Below, piece by piece: positions 173 to 15,388 of a stretch of 37,845 nt of DNA. How positions within the stretch are numbered: the first letter of the stretch is position 1; every line of letters starts with the position of its first letter. Made by a program: the position numbers and the translations under genes. The stretch comes from a virus: IMG/VR virus record IMGVR_UViG_3300045988_066923, positions 1-37,845 of that record, one strand, 5' to 3'. The notes beneath the pieces were generated by a model. That model searched no databases, had not been told where the DNA came from, and worked only from the letters and a program-made list of their open reading frames with translations.

Positions 173-193
173 TGCTAATGGATTTGCTAATGG
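173..193. repeat. Tandem TGCTAATGG x2 (173-181, 185-193; 12-bp phasing); candidate integrase arm-type sites
   Basis: Exact 9-bp direct repeat in the AT-rich arm between the att core and the int stop codon. A GCTAAC pair with the same 12-bp phasing sits in the other arm (37726-37743). Confidence 0.35.
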
Positions 194-1275
194 GTTTCGC
201 CCTCTGGCTGCGGGGCAAACAGGCTGCGCATACGACGCAGATCATCCGTCTCGTCGGCCTCTGCGATGTGCGTGTAGATCTTGTGCATGGTCTGATTGTC
301 GGCCCAGCCGCCCCAGGCCATACACTGTAACTCGCTGACGCCGGCATGGTGGCAGAGGGATGCGAAGGAGTGCCGCAGGCCGTGGATAGAGATATCCGTC
401 ACACCGGCCTCGATGCAGTCCATGTGCAGGTGCTTTTGCAGATACGACGGATTGATTCCGGCTGCCGTCTCGCCGGTCAGATCTTCGGCCAACTCCCGGA
501 CGCGGTCGATCATGATCGGGATATTCCGCTGGCTGCTTTCGTTTTTGTTTTCGTCCTTTCGGGTCCAGCCATCTGACCCCATGACGACTGCACCGGATAC
601 GCGAATCAGCCCGTGCTGCAGGTCAATGTCCTGCGGGCGCACGGCGAAGATCTCCGAACTGCGCAGCGAGTGCAGACCCAGCAGGATCGCCAGTTCCTCC
701 GGGCGGCCCTTGATGGTTTGCAGCAGCGGCGGTATTTCATTGTACCGCAGGAACGGCGTAGGCTTTTTGATGATCTGCGGGATCTTGATCTCCGGGACAG
801 TCAGCTTTGCGTACCGCAGCGAGGCCGCAACGAGCCCCCATGCGTTCTTGACGGTCTTTGCGGTGACGTGCTGCAACTCCTCGTCAATGACTTCCTGCCA
901 GTCCTTTACCTGCTGCGGCTTCTGCTCCATAAGCCCGGCAAAGCGGTCTTTCCGGTATCGCTTGTATCCGAGGATCGTCGACGGCGAGGTTTTGGCCGGG
1001 CGCGCCGCAATGTAAGCGTCCACCAACTGGCCGACAGTCATGTCGGATTTCGACTTGACCTGCCGGCCGGCCAGATACGCCGCTTTTGCTTCGATTGCGG
1101 CCAGCGTACATTCGCGGGCCGAAGCGCGCGTGATCGGGATGCTTTCCCCGCCGAGGCGGAGCTGGACGAAGTAGCTGCCGGATTTCAGCTTGCGGGGCTT
1201 TGGTGTTTTCAAGCGGGCCACACCTCCATATGCGACGTAAAGGCTGCGCGGATCCAGCCGACATTCGGATTGCAC
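187..1275 (-). CDS. int: Tyrosine recombinase / phage integrase
   Basis: C-terminal catalytic signature: LRSSE (Arg), HGLRHSFAS (H-x-x-R), GGWAD, KIYTH (Tyr). Adjacent to the att core. The start is uncertain: the ATG at 1275 overlaps the upstream gene, and a TTG near 1209 has a GGAGG upstream. Confidence 0.93.
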   Translation of the reverse strand: MQSECRLDPRSLYVAYGGVARLKTPKPRKLKSGSYFVQLRLGGESIPITRASARECTLAAIEAKAAYLAGRQVKSKSDMTVGQLVDAYIAARPAKTSPSTILGYKRYRKDRFAGLMEQKPQQVKDWQEVIDEELQHVTAKTVKNAWGLVAASLRYAKLTVPEIKIPQIIKKPTPFLRYNEIPPLLQTIKGRPEELAILLGLHSLRSSEIFAVRPQDIDLQHGLIRVSGAVVMGSDGWTRKDENKNESSQRNIPIMIDRVRELAEDLTGETAAGINPSYLQKHLHMDCIEAGVTDISIHGLRHSFASLCHHAGVSELQCMAWGGWADNQTMHKIYTHIAEADETDDLRRMRSLFAPQPEGETH

Positions 1276-2873: not shown

Positions 2874-3206
2874 TTACTTACCTTGCTGCTCTAAAAACTC
2901 AAGATAGCGAAGCGCCTCAGTCTGCCTGTCCTCCGGCAGTGAGCGAATAATGTTATATGCCTTTTGGGCCTTGTCGGCGTGAAGCTCGGCAGGGCCTTTT
3001 TTTATTTGCACATCTAGCAATTCGTCTGCCGACACGTTGAGGATTGAAGCCAGCTGCATAATTGCATCTGGGCCGGGCGTAGCGTCTCCACGTTCCCATT
3101 TGCCAACAGCTTGTGCCGAGACATACAGCTTTTCGGCAATTTCGCGCTGGCTAAAGCCAGCTTTTTTTCGTGCAGCACGAAGGTTATCACAAAACATAAG
3201 CATCAC
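2874..3206 (-). CDS. CI-like phage repressor (XRE-family HTH)
   Basis: GFSQREIAEKLYVSAQAVGKWERG HTH. Divergent from the cro-like gene across the operator region. No SD; start codons lie 2-11 nt from the predicted transcription start (leaderless-like). Confidence 0.85.
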   Translation of the reverse strand: MMLMFCDNLRAARKKAGFSQREIAEKLYVSAQAVGKWERGDATPGPDAIMQLASILNVSADELLDVQIKKGPAELHADKAQKAYNIIRSLPEDRQTEALRYLEFLEQQGK

Positions 3207-3214
3207 CTATGAAA

Positions 3215-3243
3215 ATATTACAACTAATAGTTGCAGCTTGCAA
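3215..3243 (-). promoter_or_regulatory. Leftward (repressor) promoter: TTGCAA - 17 nt - TAATAT
   Basis: -35 at 3238-3243 and -10 at 3215-3220, read on the minus strand. Operator 3221-3233 fills the spacer. Confidence 0.6.
3221..3233. promoter_or_regulatory. Operator candidate O1, CAACTAATAGTTG (perfect 6-1-6 palindrome)
   Basis: Seen directly in the sequence. Lies in the spacer of the leftward promoter. Confidence 0.6.
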
Positions 3244-3254
3244 TAAAAAAGGGC

Positions 3255-3283
3255 TTGACAGCAACTAAAAGTAGCGTTATAAT
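3255..3283 (+). promoter_or_regulatory. Rightward (early lytic) promoter: consensus TTGACA - 17 nt - TATAAT
   Basis: TTGACA at 3255-3260 and TATAAT at 3278-3283, with exactly 17-nt spacing. Confidence 0.75.
3262..3274. promoter_or_regulatory. Operator candidate O2, CAACTAAAAGTAG (one mismatch to the palindrome)
   Basis: Same CAAC-N5-GTTG family as O1 and O3. Lies in the spacer of the rightward promoter. Confidence 0.5.
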
Positions 3284-3290
3284 GCAAATA

Positions 3291-3303
3291 CAACCTAAGG
3301 TTG
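3291..3303. promoter_or_regulatory. Operator candidate O3, CAACCTAAGGTTG (perfect 6-1-6 palindrome)
   Basis: Located at the predicted start site of the rightward transcript. Confidence 0.6.
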
Positions 3304-3552
3304 CGAACGGAGGTGAGAACAACGAGAGGTTTAAGACGTAGACGTGTGAGTGCAGGCCTGTCGCAAAACGAACTCGCTGCGCGTGTAGGCGTAAGCTATC
3401 AGGCCGTTGGCAAATGGGAGCGCGGAGACGGCTATCCGGCCGCAGCATTGCTTCCTCTGCTGGCCAATGCCTTAGACTGCACGATCGACGATTTGTACAG
3501 AGAGGAGGATGCACCAGATGGGCAAGGACAGCAAGCCCCGCCTGCATGTTGA
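3301..3552 (+). CDS. Cro-like XRE-family HTH regulator
   Basis: GLSQNELAARVGVSYQAVGKWERG HTH. First gene of the rightward operon. The start is ambiguous (TTG 3301 or GTG 3313; no ATG), and GGAGG at 3309-3313 overlaps the candidate starts. Confidence 0.75.
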   Translation: MRTEVRTTRGLRRRRVSAGLSQNELAARVGVSYQAVGKWERGDGYPAAALLPLLANALDCTIDDLYREEDAPDGQGQQAPPAC

Positions 3553-3766
3553 GATCGGCATTGACGGCGTATCAAACAGCGTTGTGGACCTACATGGCAG
3601 CTATATGGATCTGCTGATCGCAGCGACTTATATCATCAATGTTTTTTACCGGACGATGTGCAAGCACGGCAACGGCGAGAAATTCAAGCGCGACATTTGC
3701 AGGTACTTGAATGATGGCGACAGCGTGGTTTGGCGCTCGGGAGGGCCGGAACATGGCAAAGGCTAA
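3518..3766 (+). CDS. Hypothetical protein
   Basis: ORF trimmed to the ATG at 3518, 9 nt after AGGAGG. Confidence 0.55.
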   Translation: MGKDSKPRLHVEIGIDGVSNSVVDLHGSYMDLLIAATYIINVFYRTMCKHGNGEKFKRDICRYLNDGDSVVWRSGGPEHGKG

Positions 3767-3992
3767 GGTCGACCGGAATACCGATTATCTGCTCCGGATG
3801 CGTATCCGCGGCGAAATGTCCGCGCAGCACGTGTCGATCGAGCAGGCCTGCACCTATGCGATGGTCAGCCAGGCGACGCTTTACCGGCTGATGGATTCGC
3901 CGACGCGGTACATGGATAAGACGCTGCGGCTTCTGCGGTGCCTGACGGTGCCGATTGAAGATGTGCGCGAGGCGATCACGTATCCATGGTGA
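3753..3992 (+). CDS. Small putative DNA-binding protein (HTH-like; possible excisionase or regulator)
   Basis: ORF trimmed to the ATG at 3753 after GGGAGG. The segment SIEQACTYAMVSQATLYRLM looks like a helix-turn-helix. Confidence 0.5.
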   Translation: MAKAKVDRNTDYLLRMRIRGEMSAQHVSIEQACTYAMVSQATLYRLMDSPTRYMDKTLRLLRCLTVPIEDVREAITYPW

Positions 3993-4082
3993 CATGGTAT
4001 CAGGTTTGACCGGCACGGGCAAGGCCGAGACGGCCCCGGTGCCGGGTGTATGGCGGCGGAAGTGCTGCCGATGGAGGTATGG

Positions 4083-4517
4083 ATGCAGCAGAATATTTAC
4101 CGGGCGGCAAGGATCTCCCGCGGACTGACGCAGGAAGCCGCCGCAGCAAAGATCCCGATCAACGTGCGCAGCCTGCGCGAATACGAATCCGGCGAGCGTG
4201 TGCCCAATTCTGACACCGTCGTCCGTATGTCGGAGATCTACGATGCGCAGTATCTGTGTTATCAGCACCTGCGGCAGACCAGTGAGATCGCGCAGCGTCT
4301 GATCCCGGACACCGGTGATCTGGCTCTGCCAGAAGCGGTTTTGCAGCTGCTGGACGCGGTCTATGCGTTCGCAGACAACAAGACGGACCGGCGCTTGATC
4401 GCAATCGCCAGAGACGGCGTGATCGATGAGCAGGAGCGGCCGGAGTATGACCGGATCGTGGAGGAGCTGCAGGACATTATCAAGTACGCAATGGCTGTCA
4501 CATACCGCCAGCGTTAA
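4083..4517 (+). CDS. XRE-family HTH regulator with a C-terminal helical domain
   Basis: ATG at 4083 after GGAGG. HTH reads ISRGLTQEAAAAKIPINVRSLREYESGERVP. Confidence 0.8.
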   Translation: MQQNIYRAARISRGLTQEAAAAKIPINVRSLREYESGERVPNSDTVVRMSEIYDAQYLCYQHLRQTSEIAQRLIPDTGDLALPEAVLQLLDAVYAFADNKTDRRLIAIARDGVIDEQERPEYDRIVEELQDIIKYAMAVTYRQR

Positions 4518-4553
4518 GCGTTCCGTCCTATCTCGCAGGAGGGAGGTATGGAC

Positions 4554-4646
4554 ATGTTCCGAGCATTCAACAACGCGCTGATCCTGGGCGGGATTGCGTT
4601 TGTCGCAATCGTGTTCCCGGTTTTGGCCAATTACAGTATGATCTGA
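4554..4646 (+). CDS. 30-aa hydrophobic peptide (single TM), absent from the ORF track
   Basis: GGAGGGAGG SD 8 nt upstream. Translation MFRAFNNALILGGIAFVAIVFPVLANYSMI. Confidence 0.4.
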   Translation: MFRAFNNALILGGIAFVAIVFPVLANYSMI

Positions 4647-4656
4647 GGTATTTTTT

Positions 4657-4902
4657 ATGGTTCCCAACAAATTCGACGGATATGACATCCTGTTACAGTC
4701 CAAGGTATCGCCGGGCCGGTATATCGTCCTCGGTACGCGCAGCAAGCTCGATCACGCGACTTTTATCTACGACGAAAAGACGGCGCAGTTTACAAAGGGC
4801 TGCTATTTCGGCACGATCAAGCGGGCCTGCAACAACTACACCACGCGCAAGGAGGGAGAAATCCGTGCCTATCAGAACAAGCTCCAGAAAGCAAAAAAAT
4901 GA
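4657..4902 (+). CDS. Hypothetical protein
   Basis: ORF with a GAGG SD, co-oriented in the early operon. Confidence 0.6.
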   Translation: MVPNKFDGYDILLQSKVSPGRYIVLGTRSKLDHATFIYDEKTAQFTKGCYFGTIKRACNNYTTRKEGEIRAYQNKLQKAKK

Positions 4903-5016
4903 CCGCACAGCTGCTGGAACAGCTGCACGGTCACTGTCGTCCGAAATGGACAACATGAAAGCATTTATATCTTACCATGAGTTTCCCTAAAATGCAAGGG
5001 GCGGAGGTGATGATTT

Positions 5017-5778
5017 TTGGCAGAAAAACAGGTGCGGGCCTACTGGGCCAATATCCCGGCCCCGGTGCTCTATGACGATGCGCTGAGCGCGAACGCGAAG
5101 CTGCTCTATGGCGAGATCACGACGCTCATGCACTTCGTCGGGAAAGAGGGTTACTGCGACGCCAGTAATCAGGAATTGGCCGAGGGGCACAAGTGGAACG
5201 CGAAGTCGGTCAGCCGTCTGGTGGCCGCGCTGGCAGACGCCGGATACATCGTGATCCAGCTGTCCAACGATCCCAAAACAGGGGCTACCATGCGGAGAAT
5301 CTATCAGACTTTGCCGCTACCCCCCTCCGCAGAATTGCGGAGACCCCCCTCCACCGAAAAGTCCACCCCCCCTCCGCAAAAAAGTGGAGGTATATATAAT
5401 GATTTAGATAATATACAAGATAAACCCCCTAAAGCCCCCCAAGGGGGCCAGCGCCCGAAAAAGCGCAAAACGGAGCCGAAGGCGACGGCCGACTGGAAGC
5501 CGGAGCGCTTTGAGGGCTTCTGGAAATTCTATCCCCGCGGGGAGGGACGGCAGGCCGCGATCCGGGCTTGGGATAAGCTCCAGCCGGACGACGCGCTGAT
5601 CGACCACATTGCCGTCTGCCTTGTGCAGCAGATGGCGTCCGAGGAGTGGCAGAGGGGCATCGGCATCCCACACGCTTCGACGTATCTCAACCAGCAGCGC
5701 TGGACGGATGAGGAGCGGAAGCCGGTTCCGGCCGCGCCTTCGCGCACGGTCGACACGGAGGGGACGCGATGGCTGTAG
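5017..5778 (+). CDS. Replication initiator / replisome organiser (N-terminal winged-HTH, Pro-rich linker, C-terminal domain)
   Basis: TTG start after GGAGGTGA. N-terminus LSANAKLLYGEITTLM...ASNQELAEGHKWNAKSVSRLVAALADAGYI is typical of phage replication HTH proteins. Sits directly upstream of, and overlaps, the DnaB gene. Confidence 0.7.
   Translation: MAEKQVRAYWANIPAPVLYDDALSANAKLLYGEITTLMHFVGKEGYCDASNQELAEGHKWNAKSVSRLVAALADAGYIVIQLSNDPKTGATMRRIYQTLPLPPSAELRRPPSTEKSTPPPQKSGGIYNDLDNIQDKPPKAPQGGQRPKKRKTEPKATADWKPERFEGFWKFYPRGEGRQAAIRAWDKLQPDDALIDHIAVCLVQQMASEEWQRGIGIPHASTYLNQQRWTDEERKPVPAAPSRTVDTEGTRWL
5315..5450. other. Candidate origin of replication inside the organiser gene
   Basis: Three direct CCCCCCTCC repeats (5320, 5344, 5367; 23-24 bp phasing). 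Inverted repeat CTCCGCA-GAAT-TGCGGAG (5325-5342). A 35-bp AT-rich block at 5390-5424. A GC hairpin at 5434-5448. Confidence 0.5.
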
Positions 5779-7154
5779 ACAGATCCGCGCTGGATCAGCA
5801 GAACCTGCTGGACGCGCAGGCGTCCGTGCTTGGCTCCATGCTGATCGACAGCCGCTGTGTTGGCGCGGTGCTGGCCGAGGTCCGGCCGGAGTACATCACG
5901 CAGCCGACATACCGCATGATCTTCGACGCGATCACGCACCTGTATGCCGACAACCGCAAGATCGACGCGGTCACGGTGCTGGCCGAGGTCACGGGCGGCG
6001 GGAAGAACACGGCCATGTATGATCTTGTGTCCAAGCTGATGCAGACCACGCCGACGGCGGCCAATGTCGGCGAGTATGTGCGGATCTTAAAGCAGCGGGC
6101 GCGGCTCATGTCGCTCAAGGATCTCGCGTCAGAAATTCTCGGTGCGGAATCCGAGGACGATATTGCGCAGCTGCTCGACCGGGCAAACGCGATCATGGTC
6201 AGCCGCCCCGGCGTCCGGACAGCGACGATGGCCGAGGCCTATCAGGACTTTTTCTCCCGGCATGATCCGGACGTCAAGAAGGAGTATCTGCGCTGGGGCA
6301 TTCAGGAGCTGGACGACGCGATTTATGCAGGGCCGGGCGATATGGTCGTCATCGGCGGTTATCCCTCGGACGGCAAAACCACCTTTGCCCTCAGCACGGC
6401 CTTTCGCATGGCCGAGAAAAAGAAAGTCGGCTTTTTCAGTTACGAAACCGACAAAGACAAGCTCTATGACCGCATTGTCGCATCGGTCGCGCAGATCGGG
6501 CTGGCAAAGCTCAAGCTGAACACGCTCAACAAAAGCGATTGGGAGACGATGGCGGCAATCAGTGAGCGGCTTGCCGGGCCGAAGCTCCAGTTGATTGAGG
6601 CCAGCGGCATGACCGTACAGGACATTCGCAGCTGGGCGCTGTCGCGGCATTTTGACCTGATCGTGGTCGATTATCTGCAAAAGATCAAGCCGGTCAGATC
6701 CTCGCGCTACGCCAGCGATTACGAAAACGTCTCGCAGATCTCCAGCGACCTGCAGCAGCTTGGCAGGCAGACCGGCATTCCCATCATTGCGCTGTCGCAG
6801 CTGTCGCGCCCGGAGCGCGGCAAAAGCGGCAAGATCCCGCCGCCGACGCTGTCGTCGCTTCGCTCATCCGGCCAGATCGAGCAGGACGCGGACGTGGTCA
6901 TGCTCCTGTACCGCGAAGACCAGGACGCACCCAACAGCCGCCGCCTGCTGCGCGTGGCAAAGAACAAGGAGGGCGAGAGCAACATCGGCGTCAAGCTGGA
7001 CTTCGACGGCCAGACACAGACCTTCCGCCGCAGCTCCAGTCAGCCGCAGCATGGCTCCCTGCCGCAGCCCACGAAGCCGCGGTATCAGCAGGCGTCCATG
7101 AAGCCGGGCGAATGGGGGCCTATCGATATCCCGGATTCGGAAATTCCATTTTGA
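5769..7154 (+). CDS. dnaB: Replicative DNA helicase, DnaB family
   Basis: N-terminal domain LLDAQASVLGSMLID, Walker A GGYPSDGKTTFAL, and DYLQKI, SQLSRPERG, SGQIEQDADVVMLLYRED motifs. Confidence 0.93.
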   Translation: MAVDRSALDQQNLLDAQASVLGSMLIDSRCVGAVLAEVRPEYITQPTYRMIFDAITHLYADNRKIDAVTVLAEVTGGGKNTAMYDLVSKLMQTTPTAANVGEYVRILKQRARLMSLKDLASEILGAESEDDIAQLLDRANAIMVSRPGVRTATMAEAYQDFFSRHDPDVKKEYLRWGIQELDDAIYAGPGDMVVIGGYPSDGKTTFALSTAFRMAEKKKVGFFSYETDKDKLYDRIVASVAQIGLAKLKLNTLNKSDWETMAAISERLAGPKLQLIEASGMTVQDIRSWALSRHFDLIVVDYLQKIKPVRSSRYASDYENVSQISSDLQQLGRQTGIPIIALSQLSRPERGKSGKIPPPTLSSLRSSGQIEQDADVVMLLYREDQDAPNSRRLLRVAKNKEGESNIGVKLDFDGQTQTFRRSSSQPQHGSLPQPTKPRYQQASMKPGEWGPIDIPDSEIPF

Positions 7155-7169
7155 AAAACGGAGGACAAC

Positions 7170-7964
7170 ATGAAAGCAATTTGTATTATGAACCTGAAAG
7201 GCGGCGTCGGAAAGACGATCACCGCCGCAAACATGGCTGCGATCCTCGCGCGTGACCACGGCAAAAAGGTGCTGCTGGTCGACTGTGACAGCCAGTGCAA
7301 TCTGACGTGGTTCGTCGGCTCGGAAGAGGAGTGCTGCACCCTGTCGGAACTGCTGACTGATCCGGTCTATCCGGAGTACGAGAGTTACATATCATGGACA
7401 GCCATGTCCGCAGGCGTCGACATTCTGCCGGCGGATGCGTCCCTGATGGCCCTCGATGCGTCGCAGCTGCTGGCTGCGCCCGGCGAAGGGCGTGTTCACG
7501 CGCGGGCGCTGTCCGATCTGGTCGACGCGGTCCGCGAAGACAAAGCGTATGATTTTGTGATCTTCGACTGCCCGCCGGCATTCAACGCAGCGGCGGCCTG
7601 CGCACTTCGCGCGGCGGATGAAGTCATCATCCCGATCAAGCTGGACGCCTTTGCCCTGCTCGGCATGGACAACCTGCTCGCGCAGATCAAGAATATGCAG
7701 CGCATCAATCCCAAGCTCCGGCTGGCCGGTGCGCTCATCACCATGCGGACGCGGGCGGACGGCGTTGACGCCGCAGAGCAGCAGCTGCGCAGTGTGCAGG
7801 GCTTGCCGGTGTTCCAGCGCGTGATCCGCCGCAGCGGCAAGGTTGACGGCTCAACCTTCGACCGGTCTCCGATTACGGTTTTCTCCCCCAAGTCTGCGAC
7901 CGGCATCGATTACCGCCGCTTCGTCCGCGAGTATCTGTCGCAGGAGGGATTGATCGATGGCTAA
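7170..7964 (+). CDS. parA: ParA/Soj-family partition ATPase
   Basis: Deviant Walker A, MNLKGGVGKTITAANMAA...LLVDCDSQCNLT. Confidence 0.9.
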   Translation: MKAICIMNLKGGVGKTITAANMAAILARDHGKKVLLVDCDSQCNLTWFVGSEEECCTLSELLTDPVYPEYESYISWTAMSAGVDILPADASLMALDASQLLAAPGEGRVHARALSDLVDAVREDKAYDFVIFDCPPAFNAAAACALRAADEVIIPIKLDAFALLGMDNLLAQIKNMQRINPKLRLAGALITMRTRADGVDAAEQQLRSVQGLPVFQRVIRRSGKVDGSTFDRSPITVFSPKSATGIDYRRFVREYLSQEGLIDG

Positions 7965-9453
7965 GGGCTTTGATATCACCTCGCTGTTCGGAGACGCCGC
8001 AGCCGTGTCCAAATCGGACACCGACCGAACGGTCACAATGATTGACATTGACCAGCTGCAGGCCAACGAAAAAAACTTTTACAAGGTCGGCAAAAAGGAT
8101 CTTGACGATCTCAAGAGCAGCATCGAGATTTCCGGCATTCTCGACCCGCCGAGCGTCTGCAAGGCGGACGGCGATAAATACCGCATTATCTCCGGGCATC
8201 GCCGATGCGAAGCGGTGCGGCAGCTGGTCAAGGAGGGTCGCAAGGATCTGCGCATGGTTCCCTGTTTCATCCGCAGCCCGCAGAGCGCGGAAATGGAGGA
8301 ACTGGAACTGATCTGGGCGAACGCCACATCGCGCGTTCTGTCCTCGCCGGAGCTGGCCCAGCAGGCCGCCCGCGTGGAGGAGCTTTTGTATCAGCTCAAG
8401 GAGCAGGGCGTGGAATTCCCCGGCCGGATGCGCGACCACGTCGCGCAGGCCTGCAAGATCAGCCGGACGAAGCTGGCGAATCTGCATGCCATTCAGACAA
8501 ACCTCCGGGCGCCGCTGCTCGATATGTGGCGCAAGGGAACGCTCAACGATGCGCAGGCGCTGGAGCTGAGCCGGCTCGACGGCGGGCTACAGGACCGGCT
8601 GGCAGGCCTGTTCCCTCGCATGAGCAAGGACGATCTTCCGGCATCCGCAGCTGTCCAAAGAATTGGAGAGCGCGCAAAAACCGGGGCGAAGTGGCTGCCC
8701 TGTGGTGTGTGCCCGGCCGGCGATGGCCTTACCTGCCCGTCTGCTCGCGGAGACGCATTCCTGCGGCACGATTTGGGCAATTACTACGATATGTGCCAAG
8801 GCTCAAAATGCTGCTGGACCTGCCGCAATGGTAGAACGGCTAGCGGATACAACGCCTGCGACAGTATGTGCAGCCGTGCGAAAGCGGCCCGCACTGCCGC
8901 CAACCAGCAGAGAAAAGACAAGGAAGAAGCAGCAGCCAAAAAGGCCGCGGATAAGGTCAAACAGGCGTTTATTGCGGAGGCGAGGCGCTGGCTTGCTGCC
9001 GCCGATGCCGCCGGGCTGTCGGACAAAACGAAAATCGATATTTCGTCCTATTCTTCGGTGTCGGTCGAGGAACTGCGCAGCTGGGCGGCAGGGAAGGATC
9101 TTGACCATCGCAGTTTTTACCGCAACGATCTGGAACCCCGCTTTGTCGACGTGGCCAAGGTATCCAAGCAGCTGCAGTGCTCCGCGGATTATATCGTCGG
9201 CAACATCGACCAGCCGTGGCCGGTCGTCCCGCTGTCGGAACTGCTGGAATCCGACCAGCCGCCGAAGTGGCGCACCGGTACACCGCCCGCGTCCGGCCAC
9301 TACTGGTGCAGCTTTGACTGTGGCAGTACTGCAATACATAGCGACGCAGTCTATGACGCCGTATTGGACGCGTGGTATTTTCCACGCCACGGCGCGAAAA
9401 TTGATGCAGTCTGCACCGGCTGGGTGCGGCTGCCGGAGGAGGACGACGCATGA
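7957..9453 (+). CDS. ParB/Srx-domain protein with a Cys-rich middle region and a DUF551-like C-terminus
   Basis: N-terminal ParB box SGILDPPSV...YRIISGHRRCEAVRQL. Cys cluster CGVCPAGDGLTCPS...CQGSKCCWTC. C-terminus ...GHYWCSF...VCTGWVRLPEE. Overlaps the ParA gene by 8 nt. Confidence 0.8.
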   Translation: MAKGFDITSLFGDAAAVSKSDTDRTVTMIDIDQLQANEKNFYKVGKKDLDDLKSSIEISGILDPPSVCKADGDKYRIISGHRRCEAVRQLVKEGRKDLRMVPCFIRSPQSAEMEELELIWANATSRVLSSPELAQQAARVEELLYQLKEQGVEFPGRMRDHVAQACKISRTKLANLHAIQTNLRAPLLDMWRKGTLNDAQALELSRLDGGLQDRLAGLFPRMSKDDLPASAAVQRIGERAKTGAKWLPCGVCPAGDGLTCPSARGDAFLRHDLGNYYDMCQGSKCCWTCRNGRTASGYNACDSMCSRAKAARTAANQQRKDKEEAAAKKAADKVKQAFIAEARRWLAAADAAGLSDKTKIDISSYSSVSVEELRSWAAGKDLDHRSFYRNDLEPRFVDVAKVSKQLQCSADYIVGNIDQPWPVVPLSELLESDQPPKWRTGTPPASGHYWCSFDCGSTAIHSDAVYDAVLDAWYFPRHGAKIDAVCTGWVRLPEEDDA

Positions 9454-9782
9454 TAAAAGATCGAAACGACATGGTCGATCTTATGGTCGAGCTGCTGGAA
9501 AACGAACTCTCCGAACCAGATTATATCCCGACTGCCCGCGGGCGTGAAATCATCAACGAGATCGCCGACTACGCTGAGGGCACAAAGCTTTTTGCGGCAA
9601 GCGGATCTCGCGGCACGTACATACAGGGTAACTGCGGCATTCACGGCTGCGCGATCATTCGCGCAGCAGGAACAACAATCAGAGAGTTGATCGCCGAAAA
9701 AGGGCGGCTGAAGCGACGGATCCGCTTCCTTCAGGCAATGTCGGTTCCTGGCACGCTGCCGGAAAGGAGAGATGATCCATGA
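9450..9782 (+). CDS. Hypothetical protein
   Basis: ATGA overlap with the upstream gene; same operon. Confidence 0.55.
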   Translation: MIKDRNDMVDLMVELLENELSEPDYIPTARGREIINEIADYAEGTKLFAASGSRGTYIQGNCGIHGCAIIRAAGTTIRELIAEKGRLKRRIRFLQAMSVPGTLPERRDDP

Positions 9783-9967
9783 GCGACGCATATATCCGCC
9801 GCTCGGCGGCAATTGGTCTGATCCGACGACACATTGGAGACTTGCAGACATCTCGGGAGGAAAGTCTGATTGCATGGGTTATCAGCACTCTACGCACCAT
9901 GCCCGCCGCCGACGTTGCGCCTTTTGCAGCCGAGGCGAACGGAAAGGAGAAGATGGATGACACGTAA
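9779..9967 (+). CDS. Hypothetical small protein
   Basis: ATGA coupling to the upstream gene. Confidence 0.55.
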   Translation: MSDAYIRRSAAIGLIRRHIGDLQTSREESLIAWVISTLRTMPAADVAPFAAEANGKEKMDDT

Positions 9968-10202
9968 ACGGTTTATCAAGCTATGTATGGGACGGCTACA
10001 TTTGTCACGCAATCAGGCAGCGGCAGCCGCAGAATCCAGAGGGCTTACGTATCATATGCTGCGAATGGCCATATCGATGCAAGAGTGTGCGCAGGCCTTT
10101 GCTCGAATGTCCTGCTTGGTGGCGCATGTGGACTCCGGCACGGAAATTCGCTACCGGCACGTCAAGAGCGTCCGCGATGGAGTGATCGAGTATGATGAGT
10201 AA
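9957..10202 (+). CDS. Hypothetical small protein with N-terminal motif RKRFIKLCMGRLHLSRNQAA
   Basis: Trimmed to the ATG at 9957, 7 nt after AAGGAG. A paralogous motif occurs in the 10759 ORF. Confidence 0.55.
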   Translation: MTRKRFIKLCMGRLHLSRNQAAAAAESRGLTYHMLRMAISMQECAQAFARMSCLVAHVDSGTEIRYRHVKSVRDGVIEYDE

Positions 10203-10461
10203 GCGAGCCGCAAAGGTAGCATCCATGGGCGACGCAAGATTTGCAGTTGAGTGGGAAAGTAGGTCTTGTACAGTCGGCCAAAGGAATGGATATTTCCATT
10301 GCTGGGAGCGCCGCATCTGCGGCGATCAAATCCAAGTTGTCGGAATTGTTGAGTTTTCTGACTGCGTCAAACGAGTTGACCCGGAGAGCATTGCTTTTCG
10401 TGATGAGACAAACGCACTTCTGTGTACCTTTGATCGCTTCGGGGTTCCGCATGATGGGTGA
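10192..10461 (+). CDS. Hypothetical protein
   Basis: ORF overlapping its neighbours in the operon. Confidence 0.5.
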   Translation: MMSKRAAKVASMGDARFAVEWESRSCTVGQRNGYFHCWERRICGDQIQVVGIVEFSDCVKRVDPESIAFRDETNALLCTFDRFGVPHDG

Positions 10462-10762
10462 CGATACAAAGCGCGTCGTGATCCGCATCAAGCGGCACAT
10501 TCCCATCTACCCGCATCTGGCTCCCGCGGTCGGTGAGATCGTTGTGGCAGACAGGCTGAATGACCCGTACAGCAACAGATACTTTTATGTCCTCCAGCGG
10601 GCCGGCAAGCGCGTAATCATCCGGCCGGACGAATGCGTGGAGATCTCACCGGCGGAAGCGTGGCCGGAGCTGTCCGTTTCCGGTCGTTGGGCGAAACTGC
10701 ACCGGGAGCAATCACGGGAGGCTGCGCGGCGAAGCTATTACAGGAGGAAACAGAAAAAATGA
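10451..10762 (+). CDS. Hypothetical protein with a basic C-terminus
   Basis: Trimmed to the ATG at 10451, which overlaps the upstream stop. Confidence 0.5.
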   Translation: MMGDDTKRVVIRIKRHIPIYPHLAPAVGEIVVADRLNDPYSNRYFYVLQRAGKRVIIRPDECVEISPAEAWPELSVSGRWAKLHREQSREAARRSYYRRKQKK

Positions 10763-10881
10763 GACGACGGTACATCAAGCGGCTCATGGCGCTCGGCATC
10801 CAGCGCAATGAGGCGGCAGATCTGTGGATGCGGTATGGCAGGCAGCTCTGGCCGCCGAGGCTGGCGCTGCCCGGACGGTAA
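10759..10881 (+). CDS. 40-aa protein, MRRRYIKRLMALGIQRNEAADL...
   Basis: AGGAGG SD and ATGA overlap with the upstream gene. Shares an R-x-x-IK-x-LM-x-LG-x-x-RN-x-A motif with the 9957 ORF. Confidence 0.5.
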   Translation: MRRRYIKRLMALGIQRNEAADLWMRYGRQLWPPRLALPGR

Positions 10882-10893
10882 AGGAGGAACGGC

Positions 10894-11049
10894 ATGATTA
10901 TTGAGATTCTGACACTGGCGGCGCTGATCGAGTGGATCGTGATCGGGCTGCTGCTGATTAGAAGCATTCGCGCCACGTGCAAAAAGATCTGCGCCGTGGA
11001 GGATGCGATGCTTGGCACGATTCAGTCATGGGGCGCGGACAATGGCTGA
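10894..11049 (+). CDS. 51-aa membrane peptide, absent from the ORF track
   Basis: AAGGAGG SD 6 nt upstream. TM segment ILTLAALIEWIVIGLLLI. Confidence 0.5.
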   Translation: MIIEILTLAALIEWIVIGLLLIRSIRATCKKICAVEDAMLGTIQSWGADNG

Positions 11050-11389
11050 TTTTATGACGCGCATGGATGAGGTCAGGCGCAACGGCATGGCCAATGCGTT
11101 TGACGCCGGAGTGCAGAAGGGCGCGGATCTGATCCTGTGTGCGCTGGCGCTCGAATTCGGATTCGGGCCTGAACGAATGCGGCGGCTTGCGGCCAAGGTT
11201 GCAGAACTTGACGATGCGCACCGGGCCGCATGGAACGGCAGCGAAGAGGCGGACTTCCACAAGGAGCGGATCGATTCTGTCCTTCGGATCGCCTGCGGCG
11301 ACGCCTTCGTCCCCTTTGATCTGCGCAACGAGTTTATTTTGCCGACGCACTATAGCAAACCGGCGCGGCAGCATAAACGCAGACGCTGA
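11042..11389 (+). CDS. Hypothetical protein
   Basis: Trimmed to the ATG at 11042, overlapping the upstream stop. Confidence 0.55.
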   Translation: MADFMTRMDEVRRNGMANAFDAGVQKGADLILCALALEFGFGPERMRRLAAKVAELDDAHRAAWNGSEEADFHKERIDSVLRIACGDAFVPFDLRNEFILPTHYSKPARQHKRRR

Positions 11390-11483
11390 CGATCTGATAT
11401 CAACCGGCTGCTATATTTCATGGACTTATGGCAACAGCTGCTTGCCATGGCAGCTGCTGCGGGGAACGGGCCGGTTTGATATA

Positions 11484-11513
11484 GGCTCGCCGCGTCCCCC
11501 TACGCGGCGAGCC
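11484..11513. other. 11-bp perfect GC-rich hairpin with an 8-nt loop (TCCCCCTA), 16 nt upstream of the Rep-like gene
   Basis: GGCTCGCCGCG (11484-11494) pairs with CGCGGCGAGCC (11503-11513). No U-tract on either strand. Confidence 0.6.
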
Positions 11514-11528
11514 AACACAAAACAGGAG

Positions 11529-12392
11529 GTGATCGCGATCCCTTATTCGCGCACGATCAAGGAGATCTATGCAGGGCCGTGCTACCGCGCGATTGACAGC
11601 GCTTCGATCCGGCCGCCGACCGGACGGCGCTCCGGCCGCGCCGATGAAACGGCACCGTACCAGCAGTATCTCAACGACAAGTCATCCGTGCAAAAGCTGG
11701 AGCATCTGATTGAGGCAAACTTCACGCTGGACGATCTGTTCGTTACCACGACCTATGCGGACGATTTCCTGCCGCCGAACTATGATATCGCCGCCCGGCG
11801 GCTGCGCGCATTCTTCGCGCGGTATCGCCCGGCGCGCAAAGCGCGCGGTCTGCCCTATGATTATGTGTATGTCATAGAGGGCGAGCACGGCGACAAGCGT
11901 ATCCATCATCACATGATCCTGCCAGCAGACGGCGGCAATGCGGAACTGATCCGTGAGCTGTGGCTATACGGCAGCATGGACATTGAGACGATCCGCCAGT
12001 TTGGCCTGCGGCCGATCCGGGGCAGTCCTTCGCTGCAACTGTCCGAGTATATAGAAATGTTCGGTCCGGACAAAGGGCCGGGGCATTACGAGATCGACTG
12101 CTATCATAAGGTCGCGATGTACATGACAAAGGAGCCGCGCAAGACTGGCCGGGCCAGATGGCAGGCGCGGATGTACACACCATCAAAGGGACTTGCGCAG
12201 CCCGTCGTGCTGGAGCGGACGCTGGAGCCAGGCGAACGATATGAGCCGCCGGATAATGTTGTGCAGCTGTCAGCCGAACGCAAGGACAACCGGTACGGCG
12301 ACTTTGGGTATACCTTCGGCTGGGTCAAAAATCAAACCGGGATAAACATTTTCGGCTCGAAACAATCAATAAATAACGGAAAGGGTGGATAA
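11529..12392 (+). CDS. HUH-superfamily rolling-circle replication initiator-like protein
   Basis: Three ordered motifs: FVTTTYADDF (motif I), RIHHHMILPA (HUH), and VAMYMTKEPRK (catalytic Y-x-x-K). There is no in-frame ATG: GTG 11529 abuts the SD, and ATC 11538 has ideal spacing to AGGAGG. Confidence 0.65.
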   Translation: MIAIPYSRTIKEIYAGPCYRAIDSASIRPPTGRRSGRADETAPYQQYLNDKSSVQKLEHLIEANFTLDDLFVTTTYADDFLPPNYDIAARRLRAFFARYRPARKARGLPYDYVYVIEGEHGDKRIHHHMILPADGGNAELIRELWLYGSMDIETIRQFGLRPIRGSPSLQLSEYIEMFGPDKGPGHYEIDCYHKVAMYMTKEPRKTGRARWQARMYTPSKGLAQPVVLERTLEPGERYEPPDNVVQLSAERKDNRYGDFGYTFGWVKNQTGINIFGSKQSINNGKGG

Positions 12393-12397
12393 AAGTC

Positions 12398-12610
12398 TTG
12401 CAAAACAAAACTGTGCGTGATATACTGTTGGTGTCAGCGGATGACAAGCTGATCTGCCCACTATGCGGCAGGCCGACGCAGCAGCGAGTGCTGCCGACAT
12501 CCAGGCTGATCGACTTCCCGCTTTACTGCAAGCACTGCAAAAAAGCGACAGTCGTAAACGTGAATACGAGCCAGAGCCAAAGCCAACGTGCTAGTGCCAG
12601 CGCCAAATGA
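12398..12610 (+). CDS. Cysteine-rich KTR-type zinc-ribbon protein
   Basis: LICPLCGRPTQQRV...LIDFPLYCKHCKKATVVNV matches the C-P-x-C-G ... FPLYC-x-x-C-K pattern of the Cys_rich_KTR family. TTG start. Confidence 0.7.
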   Translation: MQNKTVRDILLVSADDKLICPLCGRPTQQRVLPTSRLIDFPLYCKHCKKATVVNVNTSQSQSQRASASAK

Positions 12611-12645
12611 TTTGACCATGATGGTCGGATCGTTTGGCGCTTTTG
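12599..12645 (+). terminator. Structured hairpin with T-run after the KTR gene (end of the early/middle operon)
   Basis: Outer 9-bp stem AGCGCCAAA / TTTGGCGCT, with an inner palindrome GACCAT-G-ATGGTC, followed by TTTTGTT. Confidence 0.5.
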
Positions 12646-12658
12646 TTATGCAGCCGAG

Positions 12659-13072
12659 GTGATAGCCGGCTGGCAGATGCGCCGCGATCCGTTCAGGGTC
12701 ACGGCGCTTTTCTTTTTGCCGATGGATTACAAGAGCAAACGATGGCTGGCGCTACGGGCGCGGATCCTTCGCCGGGACAAAGGCCTGTGCCGTGAGGCGC
12801 TGCGGTATGGCCGGCGCGTCGAGGCAACGACAGTGCATCACGTCTACCCGGTCGAGGATTACCCGGAGCTGCAGTGGGCCGAGTGGAATCTGATCTCGAT
12901 CAGCCAGCAGGCGCACAACAGCTTCCACGATCGGTCGACCGGGAAGCTGACGCCGACCGGGTTGGCCTGGCAGAAACGAGTATCCCCCCCTCGAAAGTCA
13001 AAAACGGAAAGGACCCAGATCACCGGGCTGGGGGACTCTTTCCGACGGACGGAAAATAGCGGGAGGGGGTAA
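12659..13072 (+). CDS. Phage HNH endonuclease (packaging-associated)
   Basis: YKSKRWLALRARILRRDKGLC ... VHHVYP ... NLISISQQAHNSFH. Sits immediately upstream of the terminase. Start uncertain (GTG 12659 or ATG 12722). Confidence 0.85.
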   Translation: MIAGWQMRRDPFRVTALFFLPMDYKSKRWLALRARILRRDKGLCREALRYGRRVEATTVHHVYPVEDYPELQWAEWNLISISQQAHNSFHDRSTGKLTPTGLAWQKRVSPPRKSKTERTQITGLGDSFRRTENSGRG

Positions 13073-13092: not shown

Positions 13093-13129
13093 CAGGACGC
13101 GCGCGCAAACGACGCGGGCGCGCGTCCTG
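13093..13129. repeat. 12-bp perfect GC inverted repeat CAGGACGCGCGC / GCGCGCGTCCTG with a 13-nt loop
   Basis: Arms at 13093-13104 and 13118-13129, between the HNH and terminase genes. Confidence 0.7.
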
Positions 13130-13142
13130 GGCCGACCGGTTT

Positions 13143-13221
13143 CTCCAGGCGCGGAGGTTTGTCCTCTTTCCTCCGGCCCTCGTGTGGGAACGCTGGGCGC
13201 GGTTCATCGCCGCGCCTGGAG
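13143..13221. repeat. 12-bp perfect inverted repeat CTCCAGGCGCGG / CCGCGCCTGGAG separated by 55 nt
   Basis: Arms at 13143-13154 and 13210-13221, upstream of the likely terminase start. Confidence 0.7.
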
Positions 13222-13252
13222 AAGCCGGCCGGAGAATACCCGAGGTGATGAA

Positions 13253-15388
13253 TTGGCCAAAGAGGATATGATCCGCGCCGATATGCAGGCCGTCGGCACC
13301 TACAACCAGATTTTCGAGCCGACGATCAAGCAGCTGGCCAAGACGGAGCGCGAGCTCAGCCGCGCGGAGAAGGCGTGGAAGAAAGCGGGCGGCCTGATGG
13401 TTGCGACCCTGACCAACAAGACCGGCAGCGAGTACACGGCGAAGGACCCAAATTGGACGGTCGTTGAAAACCTCCGTGCGACGGTCACGGGCCTGCGCAA
13501 TCAGCTGGGTCTGACGCCGACCGGCCTGAATAAGGCCCGCAGCAAGCAGAGCGTGAGCCAGGACAAAGCAAAGATTGAGCAGCTGCTTGACGATGCGCAC
13601 GATTACGCCGTCGAGCACGCGGCAGAGTATCAGCGCGACGTTGACGCATACGTCGACAAGGTGCTCAGCGGTGAGATCGTCGCCTGTGAGTGGATCGTGC
13701 TGGCCTGCCGCCGATATCTCAACGATCTGGCGTCCTGCCGGTGGGACTTCCGGCCGGAACCGGCCTGTGAGATCATCGCGATCATCGAGACGACGCTTTG
13801 CCACCAGCAGGGTGAGTTCCTGGACGCGCGGCCGCTGCGCGGCACACCGTTTTATCTGCTTCCCTATCACAAGTTTATTTGCTTCAATGTCATGGGCTTT
13901 TATCTCAAGGGCACCAGTGAGCGCCGATTTAAAGAAGCCCTTGACTTTATCCCCCGAAAAAACGTCAAGACCACATTTGCTGCATCGCTGGCGTGGGCGC
14001 TGGCCCTGTATGAGCGCAGATCCGGCTCCAAGGTCTATGAGGTCGGCGGCGCGCTCAAGCAGGCGCTCGAAGGCTTCGATTTTTTGAAGTATAACGTCAA
14101 CCGGCTGGGCGTGACCGTCAAGGAGGATGCGGAACGCGGCCTGCGCATCACGGACAACAATATGGAGCACTCCATTGTCGGCGATATCGGCGACGGCTTT
14201 ATCTCCATCAACGCGCTGGCCGCGAACCCCGACAAGCAGGACTCCTTTAATGCCAACATCGTCATTTGTGACGAGGCGCACGTGTATAAGTCGCCGAAGC
14301 AGTTCCAGAAGCTTCGCGACGCGACGAAGGCCTACACCAACAAGCTCGTTATCATCATCTCTTCCGGTGGCGCGAACGCACTCGGCTTTCTGGCGAAGCG
14401 CGTGGAGTTTTGCAAGAAGATCCTCGACGGGACGATCAAGGACCCATATGCGGATGAGATTTTTATCTTTATCGCGCAGGCCCCGACCAACGAGAATGGC
14501 GACGTTGACCTGCTGGACCCGAAGGCGCTGGAGGCCGCAAGCCCCGGCTGGGGCTACAGCATCCGCCCGCAGGCGATGATCAACGACGCCGCGCAGGCCG
14601 AAGCAGATCCGCAGCTACGTCCTGAGTTTTTGAATACCTCGCTTAATATCTTCACGGCCGCGCTGCGCGCCTGGTTCGATATTACCGAGTGGCGCAAGTC
14701 CGACGCGAAATACAACTGGACGCTGGCACAGCTCGCACGCCTGCCAATCAAATGGTATGGCGGCGCTGACCTTTCCAAGATGCACGACCTGACAGCCTGC
14801 TGCCTGTTCGGCCATTACAAGGGCGTCGATATCATCATCCCGCATTGCTGGTTCCCGCGGCCAGCGGCGGAGATCAAGGCCAACAAGGATCAAATCCCGC
14901 TGTTTGGCTGGAAAGACGATGGCTGGCTGGATATGACCAACGACAAAGTCACGAATTACAGTGACATTGTCCGCTGGTTCAAGAAGCGCCGCGCCGAAGG
15001 CTTCAGGCTTCGCCGCATCGGACACGATCCGAAATTCTGCCGCGAGTATTTCGTCGAGATGAAAAAGGAGCATTTCCCGGTCAAGGCGCAAATGCAAACC
15101 TTTATCCTCAAATCCGAGGGGTTCCGCTATCTCGAAAAGTCCGCGAAGCAAGGCACACTCTACTATATGCACGCTGAACCGATGGAGTATTGCGTGCAGA
15201 ACGTCGCCGGTGTTGAAAAAGCTGACGACATGGTGCAGTACCAGAAAATCGAGCCGAACTTGCGCATTGACGTGTTTGACTGCGCGGTCTTCGCGGCCTG
15301 CGCCTATCTGAATGATCTGAGCGAGAGCAGCAAGGGCGCTGGCTGGTACAGCAGTGCCCAGCATGAAACGGAGGCTGATGCCGATTGA
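13253..15388 (+). CDS. Terminase: a P27-type small-subunit-like N-terminal region fused in frame to a large subunit (Terminase_1-type)
   Basis: N-terminal ~130 aa (YNQIFEPTIKQLAKTEREL...LRNQLGLTPTGLNKA) looks like TerS. From ...VDKVLSGEIVACEWIVLACRRYLNDL onward it looks like TerL. No stop codon separates the two. The frame is open from 13184; TTG 13253 follows GAGGTGA. Confidence 0.85.
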   Translation: MAKEDMIRADMQAVGTYNQIFEPTIKQLAKTERELSRAEKAWKKAGGLMVATLTNKTGSEYTAKDPNWTVVENLRATVTGLRNQLGLTPTGLNKARSKQSVSQDKAKIEQLLDDAHDYAVEHAAEYQRDVDAYVDKVLSGEIVACEWIVLACRRYLNDLASCRWDFRPEPACEIIAIIETTLCHQQGEFLDARPLRGTPFYLLPYHKFICFNVMGFYLKGTSERRFKEALDFIPRKNVKTTFAASLAWALALYERRSGSKVYEVGGALKQALEGFDFLKYNVNRLGVTVKEDAERGLRITDNNMEHSIVGDIGDGFISINALAANPDKQDSFNANIVICDEAHVYKSPKQFQKLRDATKAYTNKLVIIISSGGANALGFLAKRVEFCKKILDGTIKDPYADEIFIFIAQAPTNENGDVDLLDPKALEAASPGWGYSIRPQAMINDAAQAEADPQLRPEFLNTSLNIFTAALRAWFDITEWRKSDAKYNWTLAQLARLPIKWYGGADLSKMHDLTACCLFGHYKGVDIIIPHCWFPRPAAEIKANKDQIPLFGWKDDGWLDMTNDKVTNYSDIVRWFKKRRAEGFRLRRIGHDPKFCREYFVEMKKEHFPVKAQMQTFILKSEGFRYLEKSAKQGTLYYMHAEPMEYCVQNVAGVEKADDMVQYQKIEPNLRIDVFDCAVFAACAYLNDLSESSKGAGWYSSAQHETEADAD

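Follow-up and report, generated by a model that had tools for sequence, protein, structure and literature searches.

A predicted HUH replication nickase and the conserved regulatory unit that follows it in temperate phages of gut Clostridia

The stretch of DNA analysed here (the window) is the complete 37,845-bp IMG/VR virus record IMGVR_UViG_3300045988_066923, which has direct terminal repeats and belongs to a temperate, siphovirus-like phage of the gut. It encodes a predicted HUH endonuclease of the replication initiator type (Rep), which lies between a structured element upstream and a compact, conserved unit downstream. The features of this locus are as follows:

11398-11513, + strand: 115-nt conserved structured element, its architecture shared by six sequence variants
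11484-11513, + strand: hairpin with a perfect 12-bp GC stem and a 6-nt loop (the reading of 11 bp around 8 nt is equivalent), the terminal 3' helix of that element
11524-11534, + strand: extended Shine-Dalgarno (SD) sequence AGGAGGTGATC, ahead of ATC 11538
11538-12392, + strand: HUH Rep gene, ATC start, 284 amino acids plus stop codon
12398-12426, + strand: predicted sigma-70-type promoter TTGCAA-17-TGaTATACT, directly after the Rep stop codon (family form TTGCAA-17-(TG)nTAnAnT)
12449-12610, + strand: Cys_rich_KTR zinc-ribbon gene (KTR; Pfam PF14205, E = 4e-12)
12568-12604, + strand: GAGCC-type pentamer repeats, which begin in the 3' tail of KTR, reach the 5' arm of the terminator and are conserved irrespective of the amino acids encoded
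12599-12648, + strand: long-stem intrinsic terminator, a 20-pair stem (12599-12641) followed by a T-run
12655-12667, + strand: near-invariant 13-mer (C/G)GAGGTGATAGCC (= GGAGGTGATAGCC), with an SD-like core, before the first late gene

The frame running from GTG 11529 to the stop codon at 12390-12392 encodes 287 amino acids and contains LFVTTTYA, RIHHHMIL and YMTKEPRK, the three ordered HUH motifs on which the initial annotation had based its proposal of a rolling-circle Rep. Counted from ATC 11538, these correspond to motif I FVTTTY (with Y73), HHH at residues 123-125 and Y195-x-x-K198, with E114 lying between the first two. A profile search bore out the family assignment, Pfam PF23343 (REP_ORF2-G2P) being matched at 37.2 bits against a gathering cut-off of 27.8 and phrog_3584, annotated as 'replication initiation protein', at 7e-39; NCBIfam returned no match for Rep. 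The family is large, since a search of 1.84 billion representative proteins gave 1,207 clusters at E <= 1e-3. Conservation of the catalytic residues was checked in 29 diverse phage lineages, in all of which Y73 (FVTxTY), E114, R-x-HHH (H123-125) and Y195-x-x-K198-E-P were invariant; two distant Latilactobacillus homologues have N-H-H in place of HHH. The HUH motif of Rep reads R-x-H-H-H, its middle residue being His and not hydrophobic. An AlphaFold2 model built on the 29-lineage alignment (pLDDT 84, pTM 0.82) had its best matches in BFVD to the 'Replication associated protein' of uncultured Caudovirales/Siphoviridae (E 5e-16), followed by microvirus replication initiators (6e-8), and the list of PDB matches, which were weak (E = 0.016-0.08), was headed by HUH nuclease domains alone, from adeno-associated virus (AAV) Rep, wheat dwarf virus (WDV) Rep and parvovirus NS1. 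Sequence and model together indicate an intact single-tyrosine HUH Rep of the REP_ORF2/G2P (microvirus-Rep-like) family, with predicted nicking activity and no close solved relative. Our literature searches found no paper on this Rep family or on an HUH Rep together with DnaB in tailed phages.

The Rep gene is preceded by AGGAGG at 11524-11529, which is overlapped by GTG 11529 and followed, 8 nt further on and in frame, by ATC 11538; the extended sequence AGGAGGTGATC shows 11 nt of complementarity to the conserved 3' end of 16S rRNA. The ATC had been put forward as an ideally spaced start and was favoured by comparison with related phages, in which homologues start ~5 residues past the position of GTG 11529. 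In a sister group at 96% identity the GTG is out of frame (AGGAGGTGATCCT ATC), leaving in frame only the ATC, 7 nt after the SD, and a subgroup of such 96% phages (L025, L026-L029 and L031) has 20 nt duplicated in tandem (CCCGCCAAAAGAACCAGGAG) shortly before the start of Rep, which gives two SD copies before the ATC and shifts any upstream frame. The homologous start codon is polymorphic in a lineage with 43% identity, being ATG in 7 loci and ATC in 14, and ATC occupies this position in three further lineages as well. The next canonical in-frame start in the window lies 50 codons downstream, and its use would delete two beta strands that are modelled with confidence as well as two invariant residues. 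Thus, with the sister GTG out of frame, an ATG/ATC polymorphism at the homologous codon and conserved parts lost by any late start, ATC 11538 is the best start codon of Rep. The SD is very strong and the start codon weak, a combination suggestive of tightly limited Rep synthesis.

It had also been proposed that the phage possesses a theta/helicase-type replication module in addition to Rep, and both components of such a module were found:

5017-7154, + strand: theta-type module, comprising the two genes below
5017-5778, + strand: DnaD/organiser-like initiator (phrog_270, 9e-34; origin-binding 'replication initiation protein' families)
5769-7154, + strand: DnaB-like helicase (phrog_19, 6e-84)

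Presence and absence of the Rep cassette were then compared among related phages, using loci encoding Rep relatives taken from IMG/VR and from assemblies (~86 loci, Rep identity down to 30%), and the cassette was found to recur across this set. KTR follows Rep in 81 of the 86 loci, within ~10-440 nt and usually <200 nt, and, wherever the contig reaches, a terminase lies 1-3.5 kb downstream of Rep and a DnaB gene 4-8 kb upstream. Rep-KTR-terminase is also the order found where Rep identity has fallen to 30-37%, in the myovirus L013, and where the terminases are only ~21% identical. All 37 DnaB relatives of at least 34% identity with enough downstream sequence were accompanied by Rep, in contrast to none of 20 more distant DnaB relatives with at least 8 kb downstream. 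Terminase relatives of at least 66% identity with enough upstream sequence all had Rep, and at 53-56% identity it was present in L143 only; in L149, a terminase relative without Rep, the Rep slot is taken by a sigma/ArpU-like regulator and the replication gene is of the primase type. In these comparisons the distribution of Rep follows that of the replication genes rather than that of the packaging genes, a co-inheritance which argues against a nested replicon or transposon, and Rep forms a fixed part of a replication/regulation supermodule in a large clade of temperate phages of gut Clostridia. phiSM101 and two Latilactobacillus phages carry more distant members of phrog_3584 (25-29% identity) in their early regions. 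Their annotation shows neither DnaB nor primase up to 6 kb to the left or right of these genes, and phiSM101 has a separate 'plasmid replication protein' gene ~3.4 kb upstream of its Rep. Since these distant members have no nearby DnaB, the Rep family may be able to initiate replication alone.

Upstream of Rep, the initial annotation had described a GC hairpin without a U-tract and had suggested that it presents a nick site. The hairpin is present at 11484-11513, 15 nt before GTG 11529, but it is not an isolated structure, forming instead the 3' helix of the element at 11398-11513. It has no T-run on either side or strand and thus lacks the U-tract that, with a GC stem, marks an intrinsic terminator; our terminator scan does not list it. 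Perfect hairpins of at least 10 bp number 7 in the window against 0.33 in shuffled sequences, and the intergenic region before Rep folds at z = -5.2. The element comprises a closing stem (TATCAACCGG.../...CCGGTTTGATA), a small TGGACT hairpin and a TGCCAT-loop hairpin, after which come a GGGGA junction, a GATATAG linker (consensus among the variants GAUAU(A/G)) and the terminal GC hairpin. Six sequence variants from four Rep lineages have this one architecture built from wholly different stems (z -2.9 to -5.3), as judged from per-sequence folds, which were used instead of MAFFT alignments, these being out of register within stems, and of RNAalifold, which caught stem bases only. Intermediates in the inner stem include G·U pairs, such as CGCGG/CCGTG, which is G·U on the + strand only. 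A pattern scan of IMG/VR gave 59 matches, of which 48 were full elements; Rep lay 66-364 nt downstream on the same strand in all 46 full copies with enough sequence and near none of the 11 incomplete matches, which ties the element to Rep. Rfam has no family at gathering score for the window or the element, the best permissive match being CC1840 (28 bits versus 50).

The position of the terminal hairpin is kept in the lineages with 43% and 40% Rep identity, where its stem sequence is wholly different, and its loops are not conserved in the upstream regions of the 30 lineages compared. The element is missing from L016 and L018, the closest other lineages at 72% Rep identity, in which Rep overlaps or abuts the preceding gene; in one sublineage an extra open reading frame (ORF) stands between element and Rep, and distant lineages have, at the position of the element, an ordinary GC-stem and T-run terminator before the Rep SD. 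The hairpin was therefore rejected as an origin or nick-site presenter, on account of its absence from L016 and L018, the terminators of distant lineages, its replaced stems and unconserved loops and the G·U pairing on the + strand. These points, together with the intervening ORF, favour an RNA-level role, and it is more likely that the element is an RNA leader or attenuator controlling Rep expression; a role as single-stranded DNA may exist. At the contig end of L023 (positions 1-118) the gene upstream of Rep is inverted, the join falling precisely on the 3' edge of the hairpin; this is probably an artefact of assembly, caused by fold-back at the palindrome.

Downstream of Rep, a k-mer census of 30 lineages revealed a block conserved at the nucleotide level (12398-12667 in the window, with the homologous stretch in L012-L143) far better than the flanking proteins. 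The Cys-rich KTR gene and structured terminator that had been noted here were both confirmed, by the PF14205 match and by the 20-pair stem with its T-run. In ~25 lineages the distance from the promoter to the first Cys codon of KTR is fixed at 53-56 nt, and the -10 box retains T-A-n-A-n-T though the encoded residues vary. The KTR start given by the ORF finder, TTG 12398, coincides with the -35 box. Two codons and one codon before the first Cys are CTG 12449, which is TTG or GTG in sister lineages, and ATC 12452, and KTR probably starts at one of these, giving a protein of ~51 amino acids with a very short leader. L099 has no KTR ORF but retains the promoter, repeats and terminator. In all 26 lineages examined the terminator stem is 21-31 bp long with 2-7 G·U pairs, and its mean fold is -38.0 kcal/mol on the + strand and -28.5 kcal/mol on the - strand (~9.6 weaker on the minus strand).

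The 13-mer was found with at most one mismatch at 75 of the 86 Rep loci and at none of the 37 Rep-less loci of the terminase search (L144-L180), many of which start a few hundred nt upstream of the terminase and could not show it. Lineages without the exact 13-mer retain GGAGGTG and a start codon, indicating that its core is the SD of the first late gene; the SD explains this core alone, and the invariance of the 13-mer goes beyond it. As there is no room for a promoter past the terminator, the late genes would be reached by read-through, and by analogy with known late operons the layout of promoter, KTR, GAGCC repeats and terminator implies antitermination. In loci of the L034 type (the 43% lineage) the 13-mer is followed by a five-codon mini-ORF, MARAP*, equivalent to 12667-12717 of the window, where its ATG is CTG; its stop codon lies within the 5' arm of a second hairpin with a T-run before the HNH gene, an arrangement that looks like a leader-peptide attenuator. 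Cys_rich_KTR genes were also seen on conjugative or mobilisable elements of Firmicutes, L101 (plasmid pMD5057) and L102 (a Monoglobus plasmid), one of them after tet(M) in a Tn916-like segment and another before sigma-factor-like helix-turn-helix (HTH) genes. Its occurrence on plasmids suggests that KTR is a general small regulator-like gene of mobile elements and not specific to Rep; our literature searches found no paper on the function of Cys_rich_KTR.

Other genes of the window bear on how the genome may be replicated and packaged:

187-1275, minus strand: integrase (HTH regulators are also present)
12659-13072, + strand: HNH endonuclease (phrog_144, 2e-19), with homology from MDYKSKRW (ATG 12722)
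13184-15388: fused TerS-TerL terminase ORF (phrog_361, small terminase, at residues 29-130; large-terminase PHROGs at residues 135-718)

A second hairpin and T-run at 12679-12717 precede the point at which HNH homology starts. ParA and a ParB_N protein are also encoded by the phage. Rep is preceded by small ORFs without annotation: the seven scanned in 9450-11390 gave no family match, the one at 11003-11389 yielding no more than weak matches to families of unknown function. In the early region (3200-11400), PHROG scans detected no recombinase, exonuclease, resolvase or single-strand-binding protein, and no late regulator of the sigma, ArpU or RinA type. Many linear contigs of ~36-38 kb from related phages (e.g. 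L022/L105, L027/L110 and L031/L141) end 500-700 bp past Rep, within or after HNH, and these same contigs begin 50-240 bp ahead of the terminase start. Judged by these starts and ends, the cos site, at which the genome physically ends, is situated between HNH and terminase, close to a 12-bp inverted repeat at 13093-13129.

Our best reading of the locus, to which we give slightly less than even confidence, is that Rep is a late nickase which switches the phage from theta to rolling-circle replication. Theta replication would be started by the organiser-like protein and DnaB at an origin in the organiser gene. Rep would then be made late and in small amounts, its gene being preceded by a structured leader or terminator and opened by a weak start codon, with the upstream hairpin acting as part of an RNA-level leader that controls its expression. 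It would nick one strand, the 3'-OH would be extended with the DnaB of the phage as helicase, and the circles would in this way become rolling-circle (sigma) templates, yielding the concatemers needed for cos packaging by HNH and terminase. Late and low expression is suggested by the recurrent ATC start and by the terminator-like hairpins that stand just before the Rep SD in several lineages. A rival route to concatemers is not apparent, as the early region yielded no match to a recombinase, exonuclease or resolvase; proteins of these kinds bring other siphoviruses of Firmicutes to concatemeric replication, as reported for SPP1 (PMC3561973) and for Sak/Sak4 (PMC5499656). A nickase for late replication, which the initial annotation had listed among its options, thus stays the most plausible of the predicted roles.

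Several observations weigh against this proposal. A nick site or double-strand origin was found nowhere: the k-mer census upstream of Rep in 30 lineages gave nothing conserved family-wide, there was no excess of synonymous conservation within the Rep gene (the third-position peak of 0.60, against a mean of 0.44, falling at the catalytic motifs only), and no phiX-like CTTGATA site is present. Nearby, the one block with strong conservation is accounted for well enough by a promoter, a terminator and an SD. The late timing of Rep expression is read from the sequence alone, the co-inheritance of Rep and DnaB could reflect common descent and not functional partnership, and the absence of a recombinase is a matter of PHROG detection, several small ORFs still being without annotation. 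Each functional step beyond family membership is inferred. As to other candidate sites, TTGATA motifs of the phiX or pC194 type occur at no consistent position, and the downstream 13-mer with its hairpin was considered as a relaxase-like oriT or Rep origin and down-weighted, as the stem contains 2-7 G·U pairs, folds much less stably on the - strand and leads into a T-run, and as variant lineages keep only GGAGGTG and the start codon, so that an RNA-level reading explains more.

Among the alternatives to a late nickase, the foremost, though in our judgement unlikely, is a single system of the P2 type, in which Rep would be the lytic initiator from the outset and the organiser-like protein and DnaB would be helicase loader and helicase at the Rep nick. 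In P2, gpB and the host DnaB serve gpA in this manner. The strict co-occurrence of Rep with the DnaB lineage is consistent with such a system, as are the phiSM101 and Latilactobacillus relatives, in which the family may initiate without a nearby DnaB. The organiser-like protein, however, matches origin-binding initiator families (phrog_270, 9e-34), and Rep is found 4-8 kb from it, at the opposite end of the early region, where terminator-like hairpins precede a gene whose start codon is weak, a layout that is odd for the first-acting initiator.

Two further proposals give weight to the regulatory sequences around Rep. It is conceivable, though quite unlikely, that the whole forms a portable early-to-late switch cassette, composed of leader and nickase, promoter with KTR and GAGCC repeats, and terminator with 13-mer, which would fit before any packaging module and couple a programmed nick, as the switch from theta to sigma replication, to antitermination of the late genes. 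Alternatively, Rep, alone or with KTR, could act in the early-to-late transcription switch itself, binding or nicking near the promoter-KTR-GAGCC-terminator unit to allow read-through, with replication at most coupled to this; we consider this improbable. Rep is always directly upstream of a promoter, zinc-ribbon ORF, GAGCC repeats and a terminator that abuts the first late SD, the 13-mer travels with Rep-KTR and not with the terminase type, and no sigma- or ArpU-type late regulator was detected here, while the Rep-less L149 has one in the equivalent slot. Yet the invariant catalytic Tyr, His and Glu point to nicking and joining and not to mere binding, and we know of no HUH protein that acts as an antiterminator. 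The promoter, moreover, lies between Rep and KTR, so that joint action of the two genes is not required, and L099 has the unit without a KTR ORF.

A nickase serving another purpose, be it processing of DNA for packaging, superinfection exclusion or anti-defence, seems distinctly improbable. The proximity of Rep to HNH, the cos region and terminase would suit a packaging role, and the contig ends 500-700 bp after Rep fit cos ends, but these ends lie beyond the cassette, which precedes unrelated terminases (some ~21% identical, some without an HNH gene) and tracks DnaB and not the packaging module. Lastly, it is scarcely credible that the phage harbours a small rolling-circle replicon by capture, which the initial annotation had also considered, or a nested rolling-circle transposon of the HUH type. 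Although Rep and its small gene form a compact unit with bracketing hairpins, each with a similar GGAGGTGAT sequence after it, these hairpins are lineage-specific or ordinary terminators; Rep is not the only initiator, as it would be in a rolling-circle replicon, but is accompanied by an organiser-like initiator and a DnaB with which it is co-inherited (37/37); in place of the several copies, variable sites and cognate end hairpins of an HUH transposon there are a single copy, fixed synteny and flanking hairpins that do not stay together as a conserved pair; the cassette keeps one position within the clade in ~86 loci with Rep diverged to 30%; its G+C is not distinct from its surroundings; and neither a free 1.2-kb circle of the Rep segment nor copies at varied sites were seen.

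The passage from theta to rolling-circle replication in tailed phages is unsettled, even for lambda, and SPP1 and Staphylococcus phages depend on recombination proteins for it. Here a dedicated, predicted HUH nickase accompanies an origin-binding initiator and DnaB throughout a clade of phages abundant in the human gut, and if the proposed late role is true, a programmed nick would be a simple alternative. The cassette also presents three conserved regulatory parts, namely the 115-nt leader, the recurrent ATC start and the promoter-zinc-ribbon-terminator unit before the late genes. Should Rep be one more phage initiator, the result would be a useful annotation and little beyond, whereas a portable cassette, if true, would be a device coupling replication to transcription that has not been described for tailed phages.

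The downstream unit resembles the lambda pR'-6S RNA-tR' region, in which the late genes come immediately after a promoter that looks constitutive, a short transcript and a strong terminator, an order that implies antitermination. Downstream of Rep a promoter, short transcript and terminator are likewise placed directly ahead of the late genes; the difference is that the short transcript here encodes a zinc ribbon and GAGCC repeats, and that no Q-like protein was identified.

Rep itself shares its Pfam domain and the ordered motif I, HUH-type and YxxK motifs with the initiators of Microviridae (phiX174 gpA and gokushovirus VP4) and with the G2P/ORF2 proteins of inoviruses and plectroviruses (PF23343), and models of microvirus Rep proteins are its best named structural neighbours outside Caudovirales. 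The microvirus and inovirus proteins are, however, sole initiators of small single-stranded DNA phages with a defined origin next to or inside the gene, in contrast to Rep, which is encoded by a 38-kb tailed double-stranded DNA phage with an organiser and DnaB, and for which an origin was not found. Among temperate tailed phages of Firmicutes, the 'replication protein' of phiSM101 (CPR_C0031) and those of Latilactobacillus TMW 1.1381 P1 and TMW 1.46 P2 belong to the same phrog_3584 at 25-29% identity and have the same motifs, but their genes lie in the middle of the early region, with no DnaB or KTR nearby and without the 13-mer. A parallel in arrangement is offered by P2 and 186, temperate tailed phages in which the HUH nickase gpA starts rolling-circle replication with DnaB as helicase, and in which Ogr is a zinc-binding late activator. 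Rep differs from P2 gpA in that Pfam Phage_GPA is not matched and in that its YxxK motif has one Tyr where gpA has a Tyr pair, and P2 is without the separate origin-binding initiator that this phage possesses. The likeness thus lies in the presence of an HUH nickase and DnaB in a temperate tailed phage, the equivalence of KTR and Ogr being positional only.

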